A DNA stretch of 5,913 bases, taken from IMG/VR virus record IMGVR_UViG_2667527959_000008, positions 1-5,913 of that record; one strand, given 5' to 3'. Below, piece after piece: positions 1-5,913 of this stretch (positions are counted from its first letter, which is position 1; each line of letters starts with the position of its first letter). The stretch is from a virus. Lineage: Duplodnaviria > Heunggongvirae > Uroviricota > Caudoviricetes. The notes under the pieces were generated by a model. It was not told the DNA's origin, did not search any database, and worked only from the letters and a program-made list of their open reading frames with translations. The position numbers and the translations under genes were made by a program.

Positions 1-2
1 AT

Positions 3-32
3 AAAAAGGCCTGCGATTACCAGCAGGCCTGT
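3..32 (-). terminator. Rho-independent terminator downstream of the helicase gene
   Basis: Perfect 8-bp inverted repeat AGGCCTGC (9-16) / GCAGGCCT (25-32) with an 8-nt loop; on the minus strand the stem is followed by TTTTTAT (plus 2-8). It lies about 24 nt past the helicase stop at 56-58. Confidence 0.6.
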
Positions 33-55
33 TATTAGCTCAGTGATGTAGATGG

Positions 56-1432
56 TCATACGTCAGCCCCTTGTGCATATCGTCTGCCACGCGCAGCAGG
101 TGCATTTGATGCTGTGCAAATCTGTCTGGCTTCATCCTGGTCACATGCCACAAAGTGTCCGTTGCAGAACCGCTGGTAAACCGTACCAAGCGAGCCAAAA
201 CGGTTTTTCGTCACGATGATTTCAGCAAATGGTGCGGCGCTACTGTTCTCGTCATATACCGCTTCCCGATAGAGCATGATGATTGAGTCTGCGTCCTGCT
301 CAATGCTTCCTGAATCACGCAAATCTGCGTTTGTCGGGCGTTTGTTTGGTCGCTTCTCAACATCGCGCGAAAGCTGACTCAGGGAGATAACCGGTGTTTT
401 CAGGTCTTTCGCCATCGCCTTCAGGCTTCCGGAGATGTGAGCAATTGCGAGGTCGTTGCGGTCTGCTTTCGGCTTCTCAATCAGGCCAAGATAATCCGCC
501 ATGATGAGTGACAGGTTTGGATTTTCCTGTTTGTGCCGTTCTGCGATTGAGCGTATTTCTTCGACCGATAACCGCGATGCATCGACTACCCATACATCCA
601 AATCCGCAAGCTGATTCATGCCGTTAGCAACGCGTGCCCAGCCCTCGTCATCCATTGATGCAGGATTTCGCAGTACGCTAACCGACATCCTCCCGGCGTT
701 GGCAATGCTTCGCTCTGCAATCTGCAATGCGCTCATTTCCATTGAGAAAATCAATACTCCGCGCCGGACGTCAGAACCAGGAATAACGCGGCTTGCAACG
801 CCTTCGGCAATCTTCAGCGCCAGTTCGGTTTTCCCCATACCAGGACGAGCAGCGATTATCACCAGGTCTTCCGCGTTCATCCCTCCGGTGATGGCATCAA
901 GTTCTTCGATTCCGGTCTTCAGGGTATCTGACTCTTCTCCGTTCCTCAGACGCCTGTCAAGCGTGTCAGTGTAGTTGGTGATGATTTCCCCTAACCGTAC
1001 CGGTTTAACCTCGTCACGGGGCTTTCTGATGGCTGAAAGACGCTTTACAAGTTCATCCATCGCCTGACTCGATGCGTCGATGGTTCCGCTCTGAATTGGT
1101 TCACGCATTTCATCCATGATTTCCAGCACCAGACGGCGGTGATAGTTATCCGCGACCATTCCGGCATATCCCTTCAGGTTTGCGGCGCTCGGGCAGTTTT
1201 TGCTGGTCATCAGGATTGACGTGAAATGCTCCTCTCCGCACGCCTCGGCAACCATCAGCGCGTCGATTAGGTTTCTGTTTCTCGCCTGCTTGCGGATAAC
1301 CTCGAAGGCTTTCCGGTAGAGCGGAATTGAAAACGCTTCCGGCTCCAGTGTTGCCAGAACGTCACTGGCGGTTGGTGTTAATCCACCAATCAGCAGGCCA
1401 CCGATAACGCTCGCTTCGATATCCTGTTTCAT
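56..1432 (-). CDS. DnaB-family replicative DNA helicase (phage-encoded, P22 gene 12-like)
   Basis: 458-aa ORF with a DnaB-like N-terminal domain and a RecA-type ATPase core including Walker A (AARPGMGKT). Putative SD GGGGGA about 5 nt upstream of the ATG. The start ATG overlaps the stop of the upstream O-like gene (ATGA at 1429-1432), implying translational coupling. Confidence 0.9.
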
Positions 1433-2376
1433 GCAATCCCCCTGTCTGCAAACTTCCCTTCCCGAACTCCCGTTAACGAATCTTCCCTCAGCAGGTAATC
1501 AAAATCGGCCGTCCAGCCAGTGTCGTTGTCTCCGAAGTAAAACGGCTTGGCCTGATGTACAAACGCCCTGACATACGCTCTGAAACCGTCCACGTTTGGC
1601 GTTTTCAGTTGCGGGATGATTTTCTTCAGGCGGCGTTTGCGTTTCTCGTTGACCGCAACAGCGTGTGGCAGTCTGTCACCGACTTCGGTGTTGTAGGCGT
1701 TCAGGAAGGATTCGTAGTCGATTCGTTCTGCCTTGCGACGTTCATGTTTAACCTGCCCATCGCCTCCCCCATTGGGGGGTAGGGGGGTATTATTTATATT
1801 CTTGTTAATACCTTCTTGTTCATGATGTGCGGTTGTTTGTGCGGCTTCATGTGCGCTTTCATGTGCGGTATGTACGCTGAAAGCCGCGCCATTGCTGGCT
1901 TCATCATGTGCGGCATCATGTGCGGTTGTTTGTGCGGCTTCATGTGCGGGTGAATCGTCCATTTTTTGAGCATATTCATGGTAATTTGTGATGGTTATCA
2001 CGCGACCTTTTTGCTTCTCTCCATCAATGGAGATCATCCCCTCTTTCACAAAAACCTGAAGCATCCGCTCAACCTGATCACGGCTTGCTGGCTTGCCATG
2101 TCTGTCGCATAACTGAAGACCTAAATCAGCTGCTGTCACAACCAGTTGACCGGGTTGCAGATGCCATTCATGACCTTTGAAATTCGCTTTGTATGGCTTT
2201 CTGGCGGCATTCAGGAGAAGGTTTTCCCACAGGGTGCGAAGATAAACATCTTTCGCCCATGACTGTTTCAGAATGCTCCGGTACAACGGAATGTAGCCAG
2301 TTTTCTGGTTCTCCATCCTGTTGCTCCTGCGCTCGTGTGCGGCGCTGAAATCGTAGATTTTTGCTGTATTGCTCAT
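1429..2376 (-). CDS. Replication initiation protein, lambda O-like architecture (N-terminal DNA-binding domain, repeat-encoded linker, conserved phage C-terminal domain)
   Basis: 315-aa ORF starting MSNTAKI (lambda O starts MTNTAKI). The central part is encoded by the iteron array (repeated HEAAQTTAH peptide motif). It sits immediately upstream of, and coupled to, the helicase gene, in the position of lambda O / P22 gene 18. Confidence 0.8.
1789..1812. other. AT-rich segment flanking the iterons (candidate DNA-unwinding element of ori)
   Basis: TATTATTTATATTCTTGTTAATACC lies directly downstream (in gene orientation) of the iterons, the same order as iterons then AT-rich region in lambda ori. 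It is preceded by C5 (1766-1770) and two G6 runs (1774-1779, 1783-1788). Confidence 0.55.
1823..1949. repeat. Iteron array (putative ori) inside the O-like gene
   Basis: About 8 copies of TGTGCGG (one TGTGCGC) at 11-13 bp spacing in two clusters. A 31-bp block ATGTGCGGTTGTTTGTGCGGCTTCATGTGCG is repeated exactly, starting at 1824 and at 1918. Confidence 0.7.
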
Positions 2377-2378
2377 AA

Positions 2379-2651
2379 CTACCTGCCTTGACGAAAGACC
2401 TTAAGAACATCGTTAAACTGACTTACGGATATGTCTTCTTTGAGCAGCTTTTCCAGAAATGCGTTTGGAATGAACGTATATCCCTCCTCTTTTGGTAGAG
2501 ACGGGAGCAACGCCCTCGCCTCAGCCTTCAGAAGCTCAGTTCTGGCAACTTTCACAAAAGAGATTTGAGTTCTTTCATCAATGGAACGAAGGAAGCGCAA
2601 ACGCTTAGCTTCTTTGTGTGTATCAGGTGGATTAAAGCCTTTGTTTCGCAT
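2379..2651 (-). CDS. Hypothetical protein (90 aa) between cII and the O-like gene
   Basis: Start chosen at the internal ATG (2649-2651), preceded by GAGGT about 7 nt upstream and lying after the cII stop. The longer 146-aa reading from 2819 would overlap cII out of frame. The stop TAG (2379-2381) is 2 nt from the O-like ATG, suggesting coupling. No family recognised. Confidence 0.5.
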   Translation of the reverse strand: MRNKGFNPPDTHKEAKRLRFLRSIDERTQISFVKVARTELLKAEARALLPSLPKEEGYTFIPNAFLEKLLKEDISVSQFNDVLKVFRQGR

Positions 2652-2656
2652 ATAAT
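2651..2656 (+). promoter_or_regulatory. Candidate -10 element (TATAAT) of an OOP-like antisense promoter
   Basis: Perfect TATAAT on the plus strand just downstream of cII (in cII orientation), about 45 nt before a plus-strand intrinsic terminator. No convincing -35 (TGGATT at 2628-2633 is the best). Confidence 0.4.
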
Positions 2657-2662
2657 TACCTC

Positions 2663-2730
2663 GTTGGATGTTGTTAAAATTCCATTTGTATTTGATCAGA
2701 ACGCTCGGTCTTGCACACCGGGCGTTTTTT
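2663..2730 (+). ncRNA. Putative OOP-like antisense RNA overlapping the 3' end of cII
   Basis: Predicted transcript of about 68 nt from the TATAAT at 2651-2656 to the terminator at 2701-2730, antisense to the last ~55 nt of cII (stop at 2674-2676). This matches the known arrangement of lambda OOP RNA (77 nt, ending within cII). Confidence 0.45.
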
Positions 2731-2973
2731 ATTGGTGATTTCATCAAGCGCATACTTAAAAGCCCTGCTAATCGGACTGATGTCTGATGCCATTCCGAAA
2801 GCACACAAGACCGAAGCAATAAACCTCCAGTCCGTTCTGCTTATCTTCGATTCATGACAGCCAATCATCTTTGCCAGACCGCGCTGGGTAAGCGTTGACA
2901 GGTTGATGAGTAAATCAGTTTCAGCGCGATCAATTTCTCGCTGTGTTGGCTTGCTGTAACTTGCTTGTGTCAT
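2674..2973 (-). CDS. cII: Transcriptional activator CII
   Basis: 99-aa ORF whose C-terminus (ITNKKRPVCKTERSDQIQMEF) closely matches lambda CII (ILTNKKRPAATERSEQIQMEF). Contains an HTH region; SD GGAGA about 8 nt upstream of the ATG; located directly downstream of cro. Confidence 0.9.
   Translation of the reverse strand: MTQASYSKPTQREIDRAETDLLINLSTLTQRGLAKMIGCHESKISRTDWRFIASVLCAFGMASDISPISRAFKYALDEITNKKRPVCKTERSDQIQMEF
2701..2730 (+). terminator. Plus-strand intrinsic terminator inside the cII 3' coding region (putative OOP terminator)
   Basis: Stem 2702-2708 CGCTCGG pairs with 2718-2724 CCGGGCG (6 Watson-Crick pairs plus one G-U), 9-nt loop, followed by T6 (2725-2730). Confidence 0.55.
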
Positions 2974-2983
2974 TTCTTACTAT
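2951..2983 (+). promoter_or_regulatory. PRE-like CII-dependent promoter (TTGC-N6-TTGC activator site plus -10)
   Basis: TTGC (2951-2954), N6 TGTAAC, TTGC (2961-2964), then 13 nt, then TACTAT (2978-2983). Lambda PRE has TTGC-N6-TTGC, 13 nt, AAGTAT. It lies antisense within the first codons of cII and points toward cro/cI, as in lambda. Confidence 0.7.
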
Positions 2984-3094
2984 CTCCATAGATAAATAAT
3001 TTGGGTTTTTATCGTGCACCATTGACAGTCATCCTTGACCACGCCGGGCACCCGACCGTATACCGGGCCGTTCGGTACTAAAAGTACATTTTTA

Positions 3095-3325
3095 TTACAT
3101 AACAAACTGCTGTTTACCGATACGGCGAATCTGTGCTGCTGAGTACTTGCCGCCTGATGCCTTGGCGATCTTATCCGCATATTCGGTTTCACCAGTGAAC
3201 TCGGTACGCGGCAGAGAACCACGCTCAAGCCACTTATAGATGGCTTTTGGCGTAAGTCCACAAACATCAGCCACAACAGAAACTCGAACGGATTTGATAA
3301 CTTCTCCAAACGTAACTTCGTTCAT
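3095..3325 (-). CDS. cro: Cro-like HTH repressor
   Basis: 76-aa ORF with a helix-turn-helix segment (VADVCGLTPKAIYKWLERG). Strong SD AGGAGA 5 nt upstream of the ATG; divergent from cI across an operator region; followed by cII. Confidence 0.75.
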   Translation of the reverse strand: MNEVTFGEVIKSVRVSVVADVCGLTPKAIYKWLERGSLPRTEFTGETEYADKIAKASGGKYSAAQIRRIGKQQFVM

Positions 3326-3340
3326 GCTTCTCTCCTGTGG

Positions 3341-3355
3341 TGAACTTATGGTTCA
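3341..3355. promoter_or_regulatory. Operator OR (cro-proximal copy), palindrome TGAAC-N5-GTTCA
   Basis: TGAACTTATGGTTCA, identical to the 15-mer at 3398-3412. It sits just downstream of the predicted PR -10, over the PR start region. Confidence 0.7.
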
Positions 3356-3356
3356 T

Positions 3357-3384
3357 ATTATGACGGAACTGATAGTACAGTCAA
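3357..3384 (-). promoter_or_regulatory. PR-like promoter driving cro
   Basis: On the minus strand: -35 TTGACT (plus 3379-3384), 16-nt spacer, -10 CATAAT (plus 3357-3362), about 25-30 nt upstream of the cro ATG. Confidence 0.6.
3364..3378. promoter_or_regulatory. Possible degenerate middle operator
   Basis: GGAACTGATAGTACA partially matches the TGAAC-N5-GTTCA pattern (GGAAC ... GTACA) and lies within the PR spacer. Weak. Confidence 0.25.
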
Positions 3385-3397
3385 TACCTAATATAGT
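3369..3397 (+). promoter_or_regulatory. PRM-like promoter for cI (candidate, possibly leaderless)
   Basis: -10 TATAGT (3392-3397) sits 7 nt before the ATG at 3405; the -35 is weak (CTGATA, 3369-3374). A weak, activator-dependent promoter would be expected by analogy to lambda PRM, whose mRNA is leaderless. Confidence 0.35.
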
Positions 3398-3412
3398 TGA
3401 ACTTATGGTTCA
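3398..3412. promoter_or_regulatory. Operator OR (cI-proximal copy), palindrome TGAAC-N5-GTTCA
   Basis: TGAACTTATGGTTCA, identical to 3341-3355. It contains the ATG (3405-3407) proposed as the cI start. Confidence 0.7.
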
Positions 3413-4112
3413 ACAGAAAGAGCGTGAAACTTTCTCGCAGAGGCTTGCGCTGGCCTGTGATAAAGCGGGATTACCTTTGCATGGTAGGCAGGCTGATTTA
3501 GCTGTCAGGCTTAAGGTCACACCAAAAGCCATTAGTAAATGGTTCAACGGGGAGTCAATACCAAGAAAAGACAAGATGGAATCTCTGGCTTCGGTGCTGG
3601 GAACTACTGCTGCATATCTGCATGGCTATGCTGATTATGACGGTATCACGGTAAATCATCTATCAAGATCAAATGATTCTTATCGTGTTGATGTATTGGA
3701 TGTTCAGGCGAGCGCCGGGCCAGGAACCATGGTTTCCAATGAATTTATAGAAAAGATAAGAGCAATTGAATATACGCCCGAGCAGGCAAGAATTTTATTT
3801 AATGGAAGGCCACAGGAAAGCGTAAAAGTCATCACGGTTCGCGGTGACAGCATGGAGGGAACCATCAATCCGGGAGATGAGATCTTTGTTGATGTATCCA
3901 TAACCTATTTTGATGGAGATGGCATTTATGTGTTTGTATACGGGAAAACAATGCACGTTAAGCGCCTGCAAATGCAAAAGAACAGGCTTGCCGTCATCTC
4001 TGACAATGCCGCTTATGATCGATGGTACATAGAAGAAGGTGAAGAAGAGCAACTTCACATTCTAGCCAAAGTCCTCATTAGGCAGTCAATCGATTACAAG
4101 CGATTCGGATAA
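3405..4112 (+). CDS. cI: CI-type prophage repressor (N-terminal HTH, C-terminal S24/LexA-like autopeptidase domain)
   Basis: HTH segment (QADLAVRLKVTPKAISKWFNG), Ala-Gly cleavage site (QASAGPG), catalytic Ser in RGDSMEG and Lys in HVKRL. The ORF is open from 3240, but that part overlaps cro; in-frame ATGs at 3348, 3360 and 3405 are all possible, and 3405 is chosen because it follows the operators and promoter. Confidence 0.85.
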   Translation: MVQQKERETFSQRLALACDKAGLPLHGRQADLAVRLKVTPKAISKWFNGESIPRKDKMESLASVLGTTAAYLHGYADYDGITVNHLSRSNDSYRVDVLDVQASAGPGTMVSNEFIEKIRAIEYTPEQARILFNGRPQESVKVITVRGDSMEGTINPGDEIFVDVSITYFDGDGIYVFVYGKTMHVKRLQMQKNRLAVISDNAAYDRWYIEEGEEEQLHILAKVLIRQSIDYKRFG

Positions 4113-4119
4113 AAATAAA

Positions 4120-4216
4120 TTTCCTTAAAGTTCACTAACTTATGATGTAGTGAGCTTTTTATACCCATAAAATGTACTATTGGTACTTTACATTAATGAA
4201 CTTTAAGTACATTATA
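4120..4216 (+). promoter_or_regulatory. Candidate OL/PL region (operator-like half-sites and an early-left promoter candidate)
   Basis: Operator-like 15-mers: 4197-4211 TGAACTTTAAGTACA (11/15 to the OR 15-mer) and 4120-4134 TTTCCTTAAAGTTCA (10/15). An inverted repeat TCACTA/TAGTGA (4132-4137 / 4148-4153) contains AACTTATG, shared with the OR core. Promoter candidate: -35 TTTACA (4187-4192) with a -10 in ATTATAAGT (4211-4219). The position just after cI corresponds to lambda OL/PL. Confidence 0.4.
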
Positions 4217-4388
4217 AGTCCATCGAAACAACACAGCGTTTCGGTCAGTCGAACGGCGCGACAGTAAACCATGCGTCGGACCATAGGCGGGCTCAGGAAG
4301 AGCGGCAATTATGGCAAAGCGATTTACCAGCAGCTCTTTGCGAGGGGCTGACGGCAAATCTACTCCACTTATTTAAAAGAGACGGTAT

Positions 4389-4562
4389 ATGGATAATCAG
4401 GATAATGAGTTAAGAAAGGTTGTTCAGGAACTTGCTGATGAAGAAGGCATCAGCTTTTCCGATGCCCTAGATGTTTCGATTAAAGCGCTGCGTTATGAGG
4501 TAGAGCGCAGAAAATCGTTTAACGGTGAAGCTGCTTGTGATGGCTCTGCAATTACTTCTTAG
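4389..4562 (+). CDS. Small acidic hypothetical protein (57 aa)
   Basis: ORF MDNQDNELRKVVQELADEEGISFSDALDVSIKALRYEVERRKSFNGEAACDGSAITS, absent from the supplied track (presumably below its length cut-off). Weak SD (AAGAGA 8-13 nt upstream). About 13 acidic versus 7 basic residues. Its 3' end overlaps the convergent minus-strand gene by 11 nt. Confidence 0.35.
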   Translation: MDNQDNELRKVVQELADEEGISFSDALDVSIKALRYEVERRKSFNGEAACDGSAITS

Positions 4563-4830
4563 CCAAGTACCAAGAGGTGTCTGCGGCTTCGGAAACCAGT
4601 ACGTAATAGCTTTGCTTTACACTACTAGCTATACCTCTGACTTCCTCTCTAACGTTATATGCAGTTGATGTTTTTACGGTTGTATATTCAGCTGTTGGGA
4701 GGTTAAACCAAGTGCCATTACCATCCTGTATCTCACGCGAATAACCCTTTGCTTTCATCTTTTCATGAAGATTTTCATAGTCTTCAGAATCAGCGCCGCG
4801 CAACTCAACTCGAACAATATATCTTGCCAT
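4552..4830 (-). CDS. Hypothetical protein (92 aa), own promoter, transcribed opposite to the early-left genes
   Basis: Start chosen at the ATG at 4828-4830 (MARYIVRVELRGADSEDYENLHEK...), preceded by AGGA about 9 nt upstream. The 139-aa reading from 4971 would cover the promoter, repeats and terminator hairpin. Predicted alternating beta/alpha small protein. It faintly recalls a prophage-associated DUF family, but I cannot name it with confidence. Confidence 0.6.
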   Translation of the reverse strand: MARYIVRVELRGADSEDYENLHEKMKAKGYSREIQDGNGTWFNLPTAEYTTVKTSTAYNVREEVRGIASSVKQSYYVLVSEAADTSWYLAKK

Positions 4831-4845
4831 AAGAAGATTCCTATA

Positions 4846-4890
4846 TTGACTGTGGAATGAGCAACATATCAGTTTCCTTTGACTGTGGAA
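4846..4890. repeat. Two perfect 12-bp direct repeats TTGACTGTGGAA (4846-4857 and 4879-4890)
   Basis: Exact 12-mer repeated at 33-bp spacing. One copy lies in the spacer of the candidate promoter and one in the leader of the 92-aa gene. Confidence 0.7.
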
Positions 4891-4895
4891 AGCAA
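4866..4895 (-). promoter_or_regulatory. Candidate sigma70 promoter for the 92-aa minus-strand gene
   Basis: On the minus strand: -35 TTGCTT (plus 4890-4895), 18-nt spacer, -10 TGATAT (plus 4866-4871), about 30-nt leader to the ATG at 4830. Confidence 0.4.
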
Positions 4896-4944
4896 AGGGA
4901 CACGGGCCGGGCGTGGATAAAAATCCCGGCACCAACCATCGCAA

Positions 4945-4968
4945 AGCCGCCACCTGAGCGGCTTTTTT
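4945..4968 (+). terminator. Plus-strand rho-independent terminator
   Basis: Stem AGCCGC (4945-4950) / GCGGCT (4958-4963), 7-nt loop CACCTGA, followed by T6 (4963-4968). Oriented to stop plus-strand transcription that has run antisense across the 92-aa gene. Confidence 0.65.
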
Positions 4969-5101
4969 CATACCTAAGAAACTTCGCAGAGGTTTCTAAG
5001 TTATGAGACGGCGGCCATCCACCGCCCATTGAAACACTGAATAAATGCGTTGAAGTCTTGTATTAACCGTTCCGTTCGCCGCGATAAGGCCAAGAGGATT
5101 T

Positions 5102-5311
5102 ATGAGTGATTTGGAGTTGGGCTTAAAGATATACGCATTATGGTTTGTCGGGACGTTTCTGCTCGGCATAGCAATCAACTCGCTGACGAAAAAAGAACAT
5201 CGCCAGCCAATTTCAAAACTAGCCATTGACCATGTACGCATGTCTTCCGCAATAACCATTGTGGGCCTGATTGTGTGCGGTATGGTCTGGTTCTTATTCA
5301 AGGTGGTGTGA
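5102..5311 (+). CDS. Small membrane protein (69 aa, two predicted TM helices)
   Basis: Strong SD AAGAGGA 4-5 nt upstream of the ATG. Hydrophobic segments IYALWFVGTFLLGIAI and AITIVGLIVCGMVWFLF. Stop TGA (5309-5311) is 1 nt before the next ATG (5313). Confidence 0.6.
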   Translation: MSDLELGLKIYALWFVGTFLLGIAINSLTKKEHRQPISKLAIDHVRMSSAITIVGLIVCGMVWFLFKVV

Positions 5312-5312
5312 G

Positions 5313-5471
5313 ATGACAGTCACCCACAACGGCAAGCAGTACACCGACAAAAAGCTCAACGATAACGAGTGGCAGCTGACGTCGGTATCGGCACCGCGCG
5401 ACAAGCTGACGCTGAACCGCCAACAGATGAATATCGCTGGCCTCCTGGAACAGGTTGAGGTGAAGGTATGA
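5313..5471 (+). CDS. Hypothetical small protein (52 aa)
   Basis: ATG at 5313 preceded by AAGGTGG. Stop TGA (5469-5471) overlaps the next ATG (5468-5470) as ATGA. Sits in the position occupied by cIII (before kil) in lambda, but no sequence resemblance recognised. Confidence 0.5.
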   Translation: MTVTHNGKQYTDKKLNDNEWQLTSVSAPRDKLTLNRQQMNIAGLLEQVEVKV

Positions 5472-5608
5472 TCAATCATCACCTGCTGCGCGCCGCGCAG
5501 AGCAAAGCAGCCATTGCCCTGTTTATCGGTGATGGCGCCATGTGGATGGCAGCCTACGACGAAATGAAGGTTGCCATCGGTTATCCGTGGCATAGAAAAA
5601 CAGCCTAA
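5468..5608 (+). CDS. Small protein (46 aa), possibly Kil-like host division inhibitor
   Basis: ORF MINHHLLRAAQSKAAIALFIGDGAMWMAAYDEMKVAIGYPWHRKTA. Size and position in the early-left operon fit lambda kil (47 codons), and the A-x-Q-x-K ... FIGD motif resembles my recollection of Kil. Homology is unverified. Confidence 0.45.
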   Translation: MINHHLLRAAQSKAAIALFIGDGAMWMAAYDEMKVAIGYPWHRKTA

Positions 5609-5678
5609 TTCCCCTATTCAACCGATCGGCCTGGCTAAAAGCGGGCGGGATCTGCACATCCAAATTTCAGGAGAAACC

Positions 5679-5913
5679 ATGAGCGAAGTAATGGACTTAA
5701 CTGTCATCGAAATCACGCCGGAGCAGGCGCCAGCGCTTTACGTAGCGGGCGGCCTTGACGCTTACCTCGAGCAAATCCGCCAGGCAGTAAACGAAGTGCC
5801 GGACCTGTCAACGAAGAAAGGCCGTGACCGTGTCGCCTCTCTGGCGGCGCAGGTGTCGCGCAGAGAAACAGGCTCAATGGAAAGCAGCAAATCCCCTGTT
5901 GGTTGGGGTAAGC
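5679..5913 (+). CDS. Hypothetical protein, 5' part only (runs off the window end)
   Basis: Strong SD AGGAGA 5 nt upstream of the ATG at 5679; open to the end of the window (78+ codons: MSEVMDLTVIEITPEQAPALYVAGGLDAYLEQIRQ...). In lambda the genes after kil are gam/bet/exo, but no resemblance to lambda Gam or Bet was recognised. Confidence 0.55.
   Translation, partial: MSEVMDLTVIEITPEQAPALYVAGGLDAYLEQIRQAVNEVPDLSTKKGRDRVASLAAQVSRRETGSMESSKSPVGWGK

Follow-up and report, generated by a model that had tools for sequence, protein, structure and literature searches.

A 52-residue protein encoded next to phage division inhibitors in the early-left region of a lambdoid prophage

Three coupled genes and a constant pair

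The window, by which we mean the whole 5,913-nucleotide stretch of DNA analyzed here (positions 1 to 5,913 of the IMG/VR record IMGVR_UViG_2667527959_000008), represents a lambdoid prophage's immunity and early region. Our subject is a trio of very small open reading frames (ORFs) on its plus strand, called ORF1, ORF2 and ORF3 below, the last of which encodes a Kil-type protein. The initial annotation had described ORFs of 69, 52 and 46 amino acids with a one-nucleotide gap, an ATGA overlap and Shine-Dalgarno (SD) runs, and all of these elements are present at the following positions:

5102-5311, plus strand: ORF1, ATG at 5102, TGA at 5309-5311, 69 amino acids
5313-5471, plus strand: ORF2, ATG at 5313, TGA at 5469-5471, 52 amino acids
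5468-5608, plus strand: ORF3, ATG at 5468, TAA at 5606-5608, 46 amino acids
5092-5098, plus strand: SD-like AAGAGGA before ORF1, found by reading the sequence
5300-5306, plus strand: SD-like AAGGTGG before ORF2, within the 3' end of ORF1, found by reading the sequence
5457-5462, plus strand: SD-like GAGGTG before ORF3, within the 3' end of ORF2, found by reading the sequence

A single nucleotide (g5312) separates the stop codon of ORF1 from the ATG of ORF2, and the ATG of ORF3 forms the ATGA overlap with the stop codon of ORF2. In the program-made ORF list, ORF2 begins at an upstream TTG (5271) and has 66 amino acids, as it does in the GenBank entry of its phage phi80 counterpart PHI80_44. The start kept across all relatives is the ATG at 5313. 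The trio is co-directional and tightly coupled and lies in the early-left (pL) arm, as had been proposed, downstream of a cI-like repressor gene and, in intact relatives, upstream of gam, recT/bet and exo.

ORF2, which the initial annotation passed over, is the most informative of the three. It is a soluble protein that matches phrog_6396 over residues 1-52 (E = 4.4e-34) and has no match in Pfam, NCBIfam or PADLOC; PDB sequence searches with the ORF1 and ORF2 family profiles returned matches at chance level only (E > 0.3). The AlphaFold2 model of ORF2 has a mean predicted local distance difference test score (pLDDT) of 90.6 and shows four strands and short C-terminal helices folded into a small SH3/Tudor-like barrel, the structural neighbours of which are weak and generic, with no informative match among them. 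The family comprises 274 protein clusters in a public collection, and 447 relatives were detected in IMG/VR.

To describe the neighbourhood of ORF2, we used a set of 103 loci consisting of 78 of the 80 loci retrieved for the IMG/VR relatives, the window, and genome and phage loci; this set is dominated by closely related enterobacterial prophages, and its counts do not represent independent events. ORF2 overlaps the next gene by 4 nt in 102 of the 103 loci, and in 101 of these the overlapping gene encodes a division inhibitor. The inhibitor is of the KilR/phi80-Kil type (68-69 amino acids) in 79 loci and of the lambda-Kil type (46 amino acids) in 22, and the pairing also occurs in a P22-like Salmonella phage. 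The genes that precede ORF2 (the slot 1 genes, ORF1 being one of them) and the Kil types recombine freely around ORF2. The mean identity of ORF2 proteins is 0.900 within a downstream Kil type and 0.895 between types, and no column of the ORF2 alignment is associated with the type, i.e. there is no covariation of ORF2 with the Kil type. The constant pair is ORF2 and a division inhibitor, and not the trio as a whole. Hence, the compact three-gene module of the initial annotation stands as far as the coupling is concerned, but not as an obligate unit, as the ORF1 slot is swappable and elsewhere holds unrelated soluble proteins or nothing.

The suggestion that the third ORF is Kil-like was borne out. 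ORF3 scores 42.2 bits against the Pfam family Lambda_Kil (PF06301; gathering cutoff 27.6, E = 5.6e-11), for which lambda Kil itself, the positive control, gives 72.3 bits, and it matches phrog_2055, "Kil protein for bacterial septation inhibition", with E = 7e-22. Fourteen of 28 aligned residues (50%) are identical to lambda Kil, including the FIGD turn, which occupies residues 19-22 of ORF3 and aligns with F17-D20 of lambda Kil. The two proteins are alike in length (46 and 47 amino acids), in the succession of helix 1, FIGD turn and helix 2, and in a basic C-terminal patch, which in ORF3 is the HRK of ...YPWHRKTA. Both genes belong to a pL operon and lie just upstream of gam and recombination genes, and both are overlapped by the gene upstream, which is cIII in lambda and ORF2 here. 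ORF3 differs from lambda Kil in that the identity of about 50% covers the core only, and its activity is putative. The exact 46-residue protein is indexed in 2805 blocks of a public collection, and at loci with the identical protein it is followed by agt-like, GamL, RecT/Erf and exo genes. Lambda Kil disrupts FtsZ assembly and the FtsZ ring in a ZipA-dependent manner (PMC3961180), and its activity requires the helix-turn-helix core and the G-D turn (PMC11762379). Judging by this homology, ORF3 would very likely block Z-ring assembly as lambda Kil does.

The inhibitor that fills the slot right after ORF2 homologues in the 79 loci mentioned above is of the family of Rac prophage KilR and phi80 Kil (PF27398). 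It has the same general role as an FtsZ inhibitor, with KilR also affecting MreB (PMC12482147), but belongs to a family unrelated to ORF3. No BLASTP alignment between ORF3 and phi80 Kil was obtained at E ≤ 100, and ORF3 and the KilR-type proteins share only their first four residues, MINH, at a recombination joint. We also considered ORF3 as a truncated KilR-type protein; this was ruled out, since pairwise comparison places it in a different family.

In some prophages the two members of the pair are one protein. An exhaustive hidden Markov model search of 1.84 billion representative sequences gave only 48 relatives of ORF2, and these include single polypeptides in which an ORF2 domain is followed by a Lambda_Kil domain. 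The C-terminal halves of two of them, P0200 (93 amino acids) and P0207 (95 amino acids), score above the Pfam Lambda_Kil cutoff. Both keep the conserved ORF2 residues H5, Y10, W, P-R, L-N and A-G. Fusions of this kind form at least 65 clusters at 90% identity from Citrobacter, Enterobacter and other genera; some are named "host cell division inhibitory peptide Kil" at NCBI, and one was found at the equivalent site, after a repressor gene. Lambda Kil can bear an N-terminal extension, since it is active with a tag at that end (PMC11762379).

The same search returned a different kind of sequence. P0174, P0178, P0205 and others are 1,100-6,300 amino acids in length, and a match to the β-hairpin THNGKQY..., the first ~25 residues of the ORF2 profile, is repeated in them 4-14 times. 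These are probably unrelated repeat proteins.

A possible role of ORF2 in division inhibition

Gene structure, coding constraint, family assignments, synteny and fusions are what the analysis shows; how the proteins work is inferred at each biochemical step. By homology, ORF3 would act as a lambda-type Kil, a Z-ring inhibitor. ORF2 would be made just before Kil from the same mRNA and would most likely be an accessory or modulating subunit in the Kil pathway. We give a role of ORF2 as partner or modulator in the inhibitor pathway a close to even chance of being correct, on the strength of synteny, the fusions, translational coupling and the lack of covariation. Because ORF2 serves two unrelated inhibitor families while its own sequence is unchanged, it more likely targets a shared host component, namely the FtsZ/ZipA division machinery, and less likely a surface peculiar to a single type of Kil.

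A more elaborate form of this proposal is tentative and, taken as a whole, doubtful. The phrog_6396 protein would be a dedicated partner domain and Kil one half of a two-part effector, with the ORF2 barrel docking on the division machinery or setting the dose or timing of inhibition. ORF2 would then be interchangeable between lambda Kil and KilR and covalently fused to Kil in some prophages, and in phi80-type phages a third component, anchored in the membrane, might be supplied by the conserved cytoplasmic loop of ORF1.

Several observations weigh against a partnership of ORF2 and Kil or against the gene assignments that underlie it. The absence of covariation between ORF2 and the Kil type fits equally well with an ORF2 that is unrelated to Kil. 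Any co-expressed overlapping neighbours can become fused, and the fusions are not confined to the ORF2-Kil junction: P0194 (129 amino acids) is a natural fusion of an 86-89-residue slot 1 family (...RDYFAAQAM...) with an ORF2-like domain. The Rosetta-stone argument is hence suggestive, but not a proof; P0194 either weakens its specificity or else links all three slots. The selection acting on ORF1 and ORF2 (see below) is measured over little divergence, as both families are shallow. The phi80 record omits ORF1 and draws a Rho-dependent terminator, tL1B, inside the equivalent sequence (4185-4222 of JX871397). The C-terminal RSK/RSSK motif occurs in almost every lambda Kil homologue (PMC11762379), and ORF3 has HRK instead. 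Finally, lambda Kil alone causes filamentation (PMC3961180), so that a partner is not needed in principle.

An alternative that we consider unlikely, although it survives better than the others, is that ORF2 is an antidote. Like the type IV antitoxin CbeA, which opposes CbtA, it would temper Kil or KilR by way of FtsZ and not by acting on the toxin, and, being made first from the coupled mRNA, it would render the division block only transient. ORF2 does lie upstream of a toxic gene and overlaps it by ATGA, and over-expression of either Kil or KilR is lethal (PMC3961180, PMC12482147). Its pairing with two FtsZ inhibitors of unrelated families, with no covariation, is as expected of target-directed antagonism. 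The CbtA/CbeA pairs of cryptic prophages, which act on FtsZ/MreB, are likewise two-gene prophage modules with a small toxic protein directed at the cytoskeleton, and here as there a partner might act on the target and not on the toxin (PMC5371832). However, these pairs have no homology to the trio, the role of ORF2 is putative, and ORF2 has no sequence or fold similarity to known antitoxins. Above all, the covalent ORF2-Kil fusions, with their 65 or more clusters, are hard to reconcile with a pure antagonist.

It is quite unlikely that ORF2 is a non-homologous stand-in for lambda CIII that shields CII from FtsH and lies beside kil because this is the ancestral position of cIII. The resemblance is positional: lambda cIII encodes a small FtsH inhibitor of 54 amino acids directly upstream of kil and overlapping it, and the 52-residue ORF2 takes the same position here and in the P22-like phage. 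In addition, the window contains a gene of the lambda CII family, and none of the genes in the complete early-left arms of the relatives has a recorded Lambda_CIII match. A true CIII homologue is ruled out, since the Pfam profile Lambda_CIII (PF02061) misses ORF2 at E ≤ 10 while matching lambda CIII at 1.5e-30, and with hhalign the probability is 0.2%. The predicted folds differ as well: CIII works by means of an amphipathic helix, and ORF2 is modelled as a small, mainly β barrel. Most ORF2-bearing prophages have regulators of the YdaS/YdaT type and not a lambda-type CII, and a CIII function gives no rationale for a fusion to Kil.

Kil and KilR serve as models of FtsZ inhibition by phages; they have been discussed as leads for antimicrobials targeting the divisome and have so far been studied as stand-alone peptides. 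In these ORF2-bearing prophages, the inhibitor would always be made with a conserved 52-residue protein, sometimes fused to the ORF2 domain. If ORF2 does modulate or target the inhibitor, single-gene experiments miss part of the natural mechanism; if it has no bearing on the action of Kil, then the locus is no more than a well-conserved part of a prophage that is common. We searched the literature on phi80 early-left genes and the companions of Kil and found nothing on ORF1 or ORF2. Within that literature, the occurrence of phrog_6396 as a companion of two unrelated families of division inhibitors (101 of 103 loci) and the fusion of phrog_6396 proteins to Kil, both of them computational associations, appear to be new.

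ORF1 and the coding status of the small ORFs

ORF1 matches phrog_25975 over its entire length (residues 1-69 of 69, E = 1.2e-48) and has no match in Pfam, NCBIfam or PADLOC; for all three proteins of the trio, PADLOC-DB gave no family at E ≤ 1. It had been predicted to be a membrane protein with two helices, and our topology check agrees with this. The two Kyte-Doolittle peaks in a 19-residue window, 1.79 and 2.41, are both above the usual threshold, and the AlphaFold2 model (pLDDT 76) is a helical hairpin with helices at residues 3-32 and 39-68. The connecting loop, KKEHRQxLSKLAIDHVRM, is basic and nearly invariant and, by the positive-inside rule, is predicted to be cytoplasmic with both termini in the periplasm.

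The distribution of ORF1 is narrow. Its family has 47 clusters, all at least 77% identical and all enterobacterial; phi80 alone carries it among 50,697 phage records, and a scan of genome contigs with ORF1 gave only two loci. In the loci examined, ORF1 always lies immediately upstream of ORF2. Elsewhere its slot is filled by a DUF7446 protein (82 amino acids), the 86-89-residue family, a protein of 169-171 amino acids (HK639_43) or others, or is empty, and all the alternative slot 1 proteins examined are soluble. Our results show in part that ORF1 is an exchangeable accessory protein of the inner membrane.

Some of the alternative slot 1 proteins have one feature in common. Those of loci L011, L014, L015, L017 and L019 (82, 86, 89 and 171 amino acids) are unrelated, and all of them end in ...REAS and have an ATGA overlap with ORF2. 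This tail probably stems from a conserved block of DNA that contains the ribosome-binding site of ORF2 and is used as a recombination joint.

ORF1 is probably expressed with the early-left genes only, and it would then act in lytic development and not in the lysogen. The initial annotation pointed out that small membrane proteins in such regions are often superinfection-exclusion or host-takeover factors; for ORF1 we found no support for superinfection exclusion. Exclusion proteins such as T4 Imm are also small membrane proteins, and ORF1 is small, has two predicted transmembrane helices and sits in a variable, moron-like slot of the immunity-proximal region. Nonetheless, a superinfection-exclusion or defence factor that guards the lysogen at the inner membrane is very unlikely. 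The consensus scan found no promoter between a terminator-like hairpin (4945-4968) and ORF1 that could serve as its own; the gene is co-directional with the repressed pL operon and 1 nt away from ORF2, and it lacks a PADLOC match, while the alternatives in the same slot are soluble. Packed into a repressor-controlled operon, ORF1 is not expected to be expressed in the lysogen.

The coding status of ORF1 and ORF2 was examined in 9-10 diverged loci, which come from phage phi80 and from five genera, represented by E. coli, Enterobacter, Salmonella, Citrobacter and Leclercia, and both frames are uninterrupted in all of them. The ratio of nonsynonymous to synonymous polymorphism (pN/pS) is minimal in the proposed frames (ORF1 0.32, ORF2 0.47). 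It rises to 0.59 and 0.49, respectively, in the antisense frame with the same wobble positions, which has one internal stop in each case, and to 0.95-2.4 in the remaining frames, which have 4-64 stops. Variable alignment columns concentrate at third codon positions, with 27 against 13 and 14 at the other two in ORF1, and 31 against 17 and 13 in ORF2. The arrangement of the trio exceeds chance: besides the 4-nt overlap of ORF2 with the gene that follows it, the ORF1/ORF2 gap is +1 nt in 28 of 28 loci.

An antisense ORF of 99 amino acids (5294-5593, minus strand), similar to PHI80_43 of phi80, was also considered. It is best explained as a wobble-sharing shadow of ORF2 and ORF3, and PHI80_43 itself is probably a shadow frame.

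That ORF1, ORF2 or both are not genes and the region is a regulatory leader is extremely improbable: the phi80 record, with its missing ORF1, its tL1B and its annotated antisense PHI80_43, and the low pN/pS of the wobble-sharing antisense frame (0.49-0.59) would suit a leader, but the sense frames are free of stops in every locus, SD-like runs are present, the geometry of starts, stops and overlap is kept, the length is constant (69 or 52 amino acids) down to ~77% identity, the ORF2 model is confident, natural in-frame ORF2-Kil fusions occur, and both ORFs are called by the annotation pipeline PGAP in the E. coli RefSeq genomes examined and by the gene calls of the contig collection.

Operon context, relation to phi80 and the end of the window

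The minus strand of the window encodes a DnaB-like helicase, a replication protein, a lambda-type cII and a cro-like gene. Its plus strand has a LexA/S24-type cI-like repressor gene (end at 4112), followed by a 57-residue ORF and then by the trio, with an oppositely oriented GhoS/YmfI-like gene in between. Three further features on the plus strand concern the expression and surroundings of the trio:

4187-4215, plus strand: candidate pL-type promoter TTTACA-17-CATTAT, from a consensus scan, just 3' of the cI-like gene
4945-4968, plus strand: hairpin resembling an intrinsic terminator, AGCCGC...GCGGCUUUUUU, ~135 nt upstream of ORF1, with a fold energy of -10 kcal/mol (z = -2.3)
5679-5854, plus strand: 5' fragment of an agt/Mog-like gene, the next early-left gene, 322-323 amino acids in intact relatives, with phrog_1376 matching its N-terminus

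The trio shares its strand with the repressor gene and belongs to the leftward early operon. The stretch is best explained as part of the leftward (pL), delayed-early operon of a lambdoid E. coli prophage resembling phi80/HK639; together with the roles proposed above for the three proteins, this explanation is somewhat favoured as a whole. Transcripts would probably begin 3' of the cI-like gene, with the candidate pL site, the sole promoter-like site that the consensus scan found in 4050-5913, as their presumed source. They would have to pass the hairpin at 4945-4968 and, as a delayed-early message from pL, would give coupled translation of all three cistrons as a unit. The hairpin matches the phi80 terminator tL1A (3989-4011 of the phi80 sequence), as window positions 4942-5475 correspond to 3985-4519 of phi80; it was not among the sites returned by a dedicated terminator scan. 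Between the repressor gene and the trio (4113-4562) there is no N-like antiterminator gene, and the sole ORF there is the acidic 57-residue ORF (4389-4562), which belongs to no family. Relatives are not alike in this respect: N is present in phi80, and HK639 carries a putL-like antiterminator RNA.

Two observations concern the stretch just upstream of the trio. The GhoS/YmfI-like gene (4555-4833, minus strand) is antisense to the presumed pL transcript. It matches Pfam GhoS with 21.6 bits (cutoff 21), NCBIfam YmfI_phage with 59.5 bits, which is below the cutoff of 140, and phrog_8894. The ORF list gives it as 4552-4971; its true start is probably the ATG at 4833, since its homologues have 92 amino acids. 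Positions 4892-4968 (plus strand) show a sub-threshold Rfam match (21.3 bits, gathering score 50) to the Gifsy-1 small RNA IsrK, with which they have in common a GCCGGG/CCCGGC hairpin and the tL1A-equivalent terminator hairpin. The match may be due to chance or may mark a small, terminated leader RNA that precedes the trio.

Over window positions 4323-5863, prophages in several E. coli assemblies and one IMG/VR contig have exactly the same sequence (100% identity). In these identical relatives the trio is followed by a 323-residue agt/Mog-like gene, gamL, recT/bet, exo and further genes, with an integrase at the end. The locus as such is ordinary, since identical DNA is widespread. It represents one more case of the known phi80/HK639-type early-left region, with a Kil from a characterised family.

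The best cultured relative is phi80 (JX871397, L001 in our locus set), with ~93% DNA identity over window positions 4942-5475. Its early-left genes and sites are ordered N - tL1 - PHI80_44 - kil - agt/mog - gamL - recT - exo. It has an intact, unannotated homologue of ORF1 that is 95.7% identical (4146-4355), and PHI80_44 (4315-4515), 83% identical, is the counterpart of ORF2. The homology to the window ends ~10 nt into kil, where phi80 continues with an inhibitor of 69 amino acids of the KilR type that has no detectable similarity to ORF3. Upstream, phi80 has N, whereas the window has the 57-residue ORF and the oppositely oriented GhoS/YmfI-like gene. The phi80 reference starts PHI80_44 at an upstream TTG (66 amino acids), while the conserved ATG gives 52. 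Our analysis thus corrects the phi80 reference annotation by adding the missing ORF1 and by moving the start of ORF2 from the TTG to the ATG.

The agt/Mog-like fragment leads to the end of the window. Over its first 58 amino acids, it has 94.8% identity with phi80 agt and 100% with the 323-residue gene of another locus in our set (L020). The gene is cut after 176 nt and joined out of frame to the interior of lambda N (100% identity; 5855-5913) through a 9-nt microhomology, GTCGCGCAG, at 5855-5863. This junction occurs in none of 5,426 complete E. coli genomes, which indicates that the source of the window either was rearranged by illegitimate recombination or is an assembly chimera. The trio itself is unaffected by it.

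A mosaic boundary lies at about 4223-4323. Positions 1-4223 are ~98% identical to one set of E. coli prophages, of the lambda-CII and DnaB type, and positions 4323-5863 match another set at 100%, which has YdaS/YdaT-type regulators in the left arms. Within the replication gene (1429-2376, minus strand), direct repeats with a period of 12 nt (TTCATGTGCGG-like) extend over 1819-1961 and encode repeats of the replication protein; they look like an iteron-type origin within an O-like gene.

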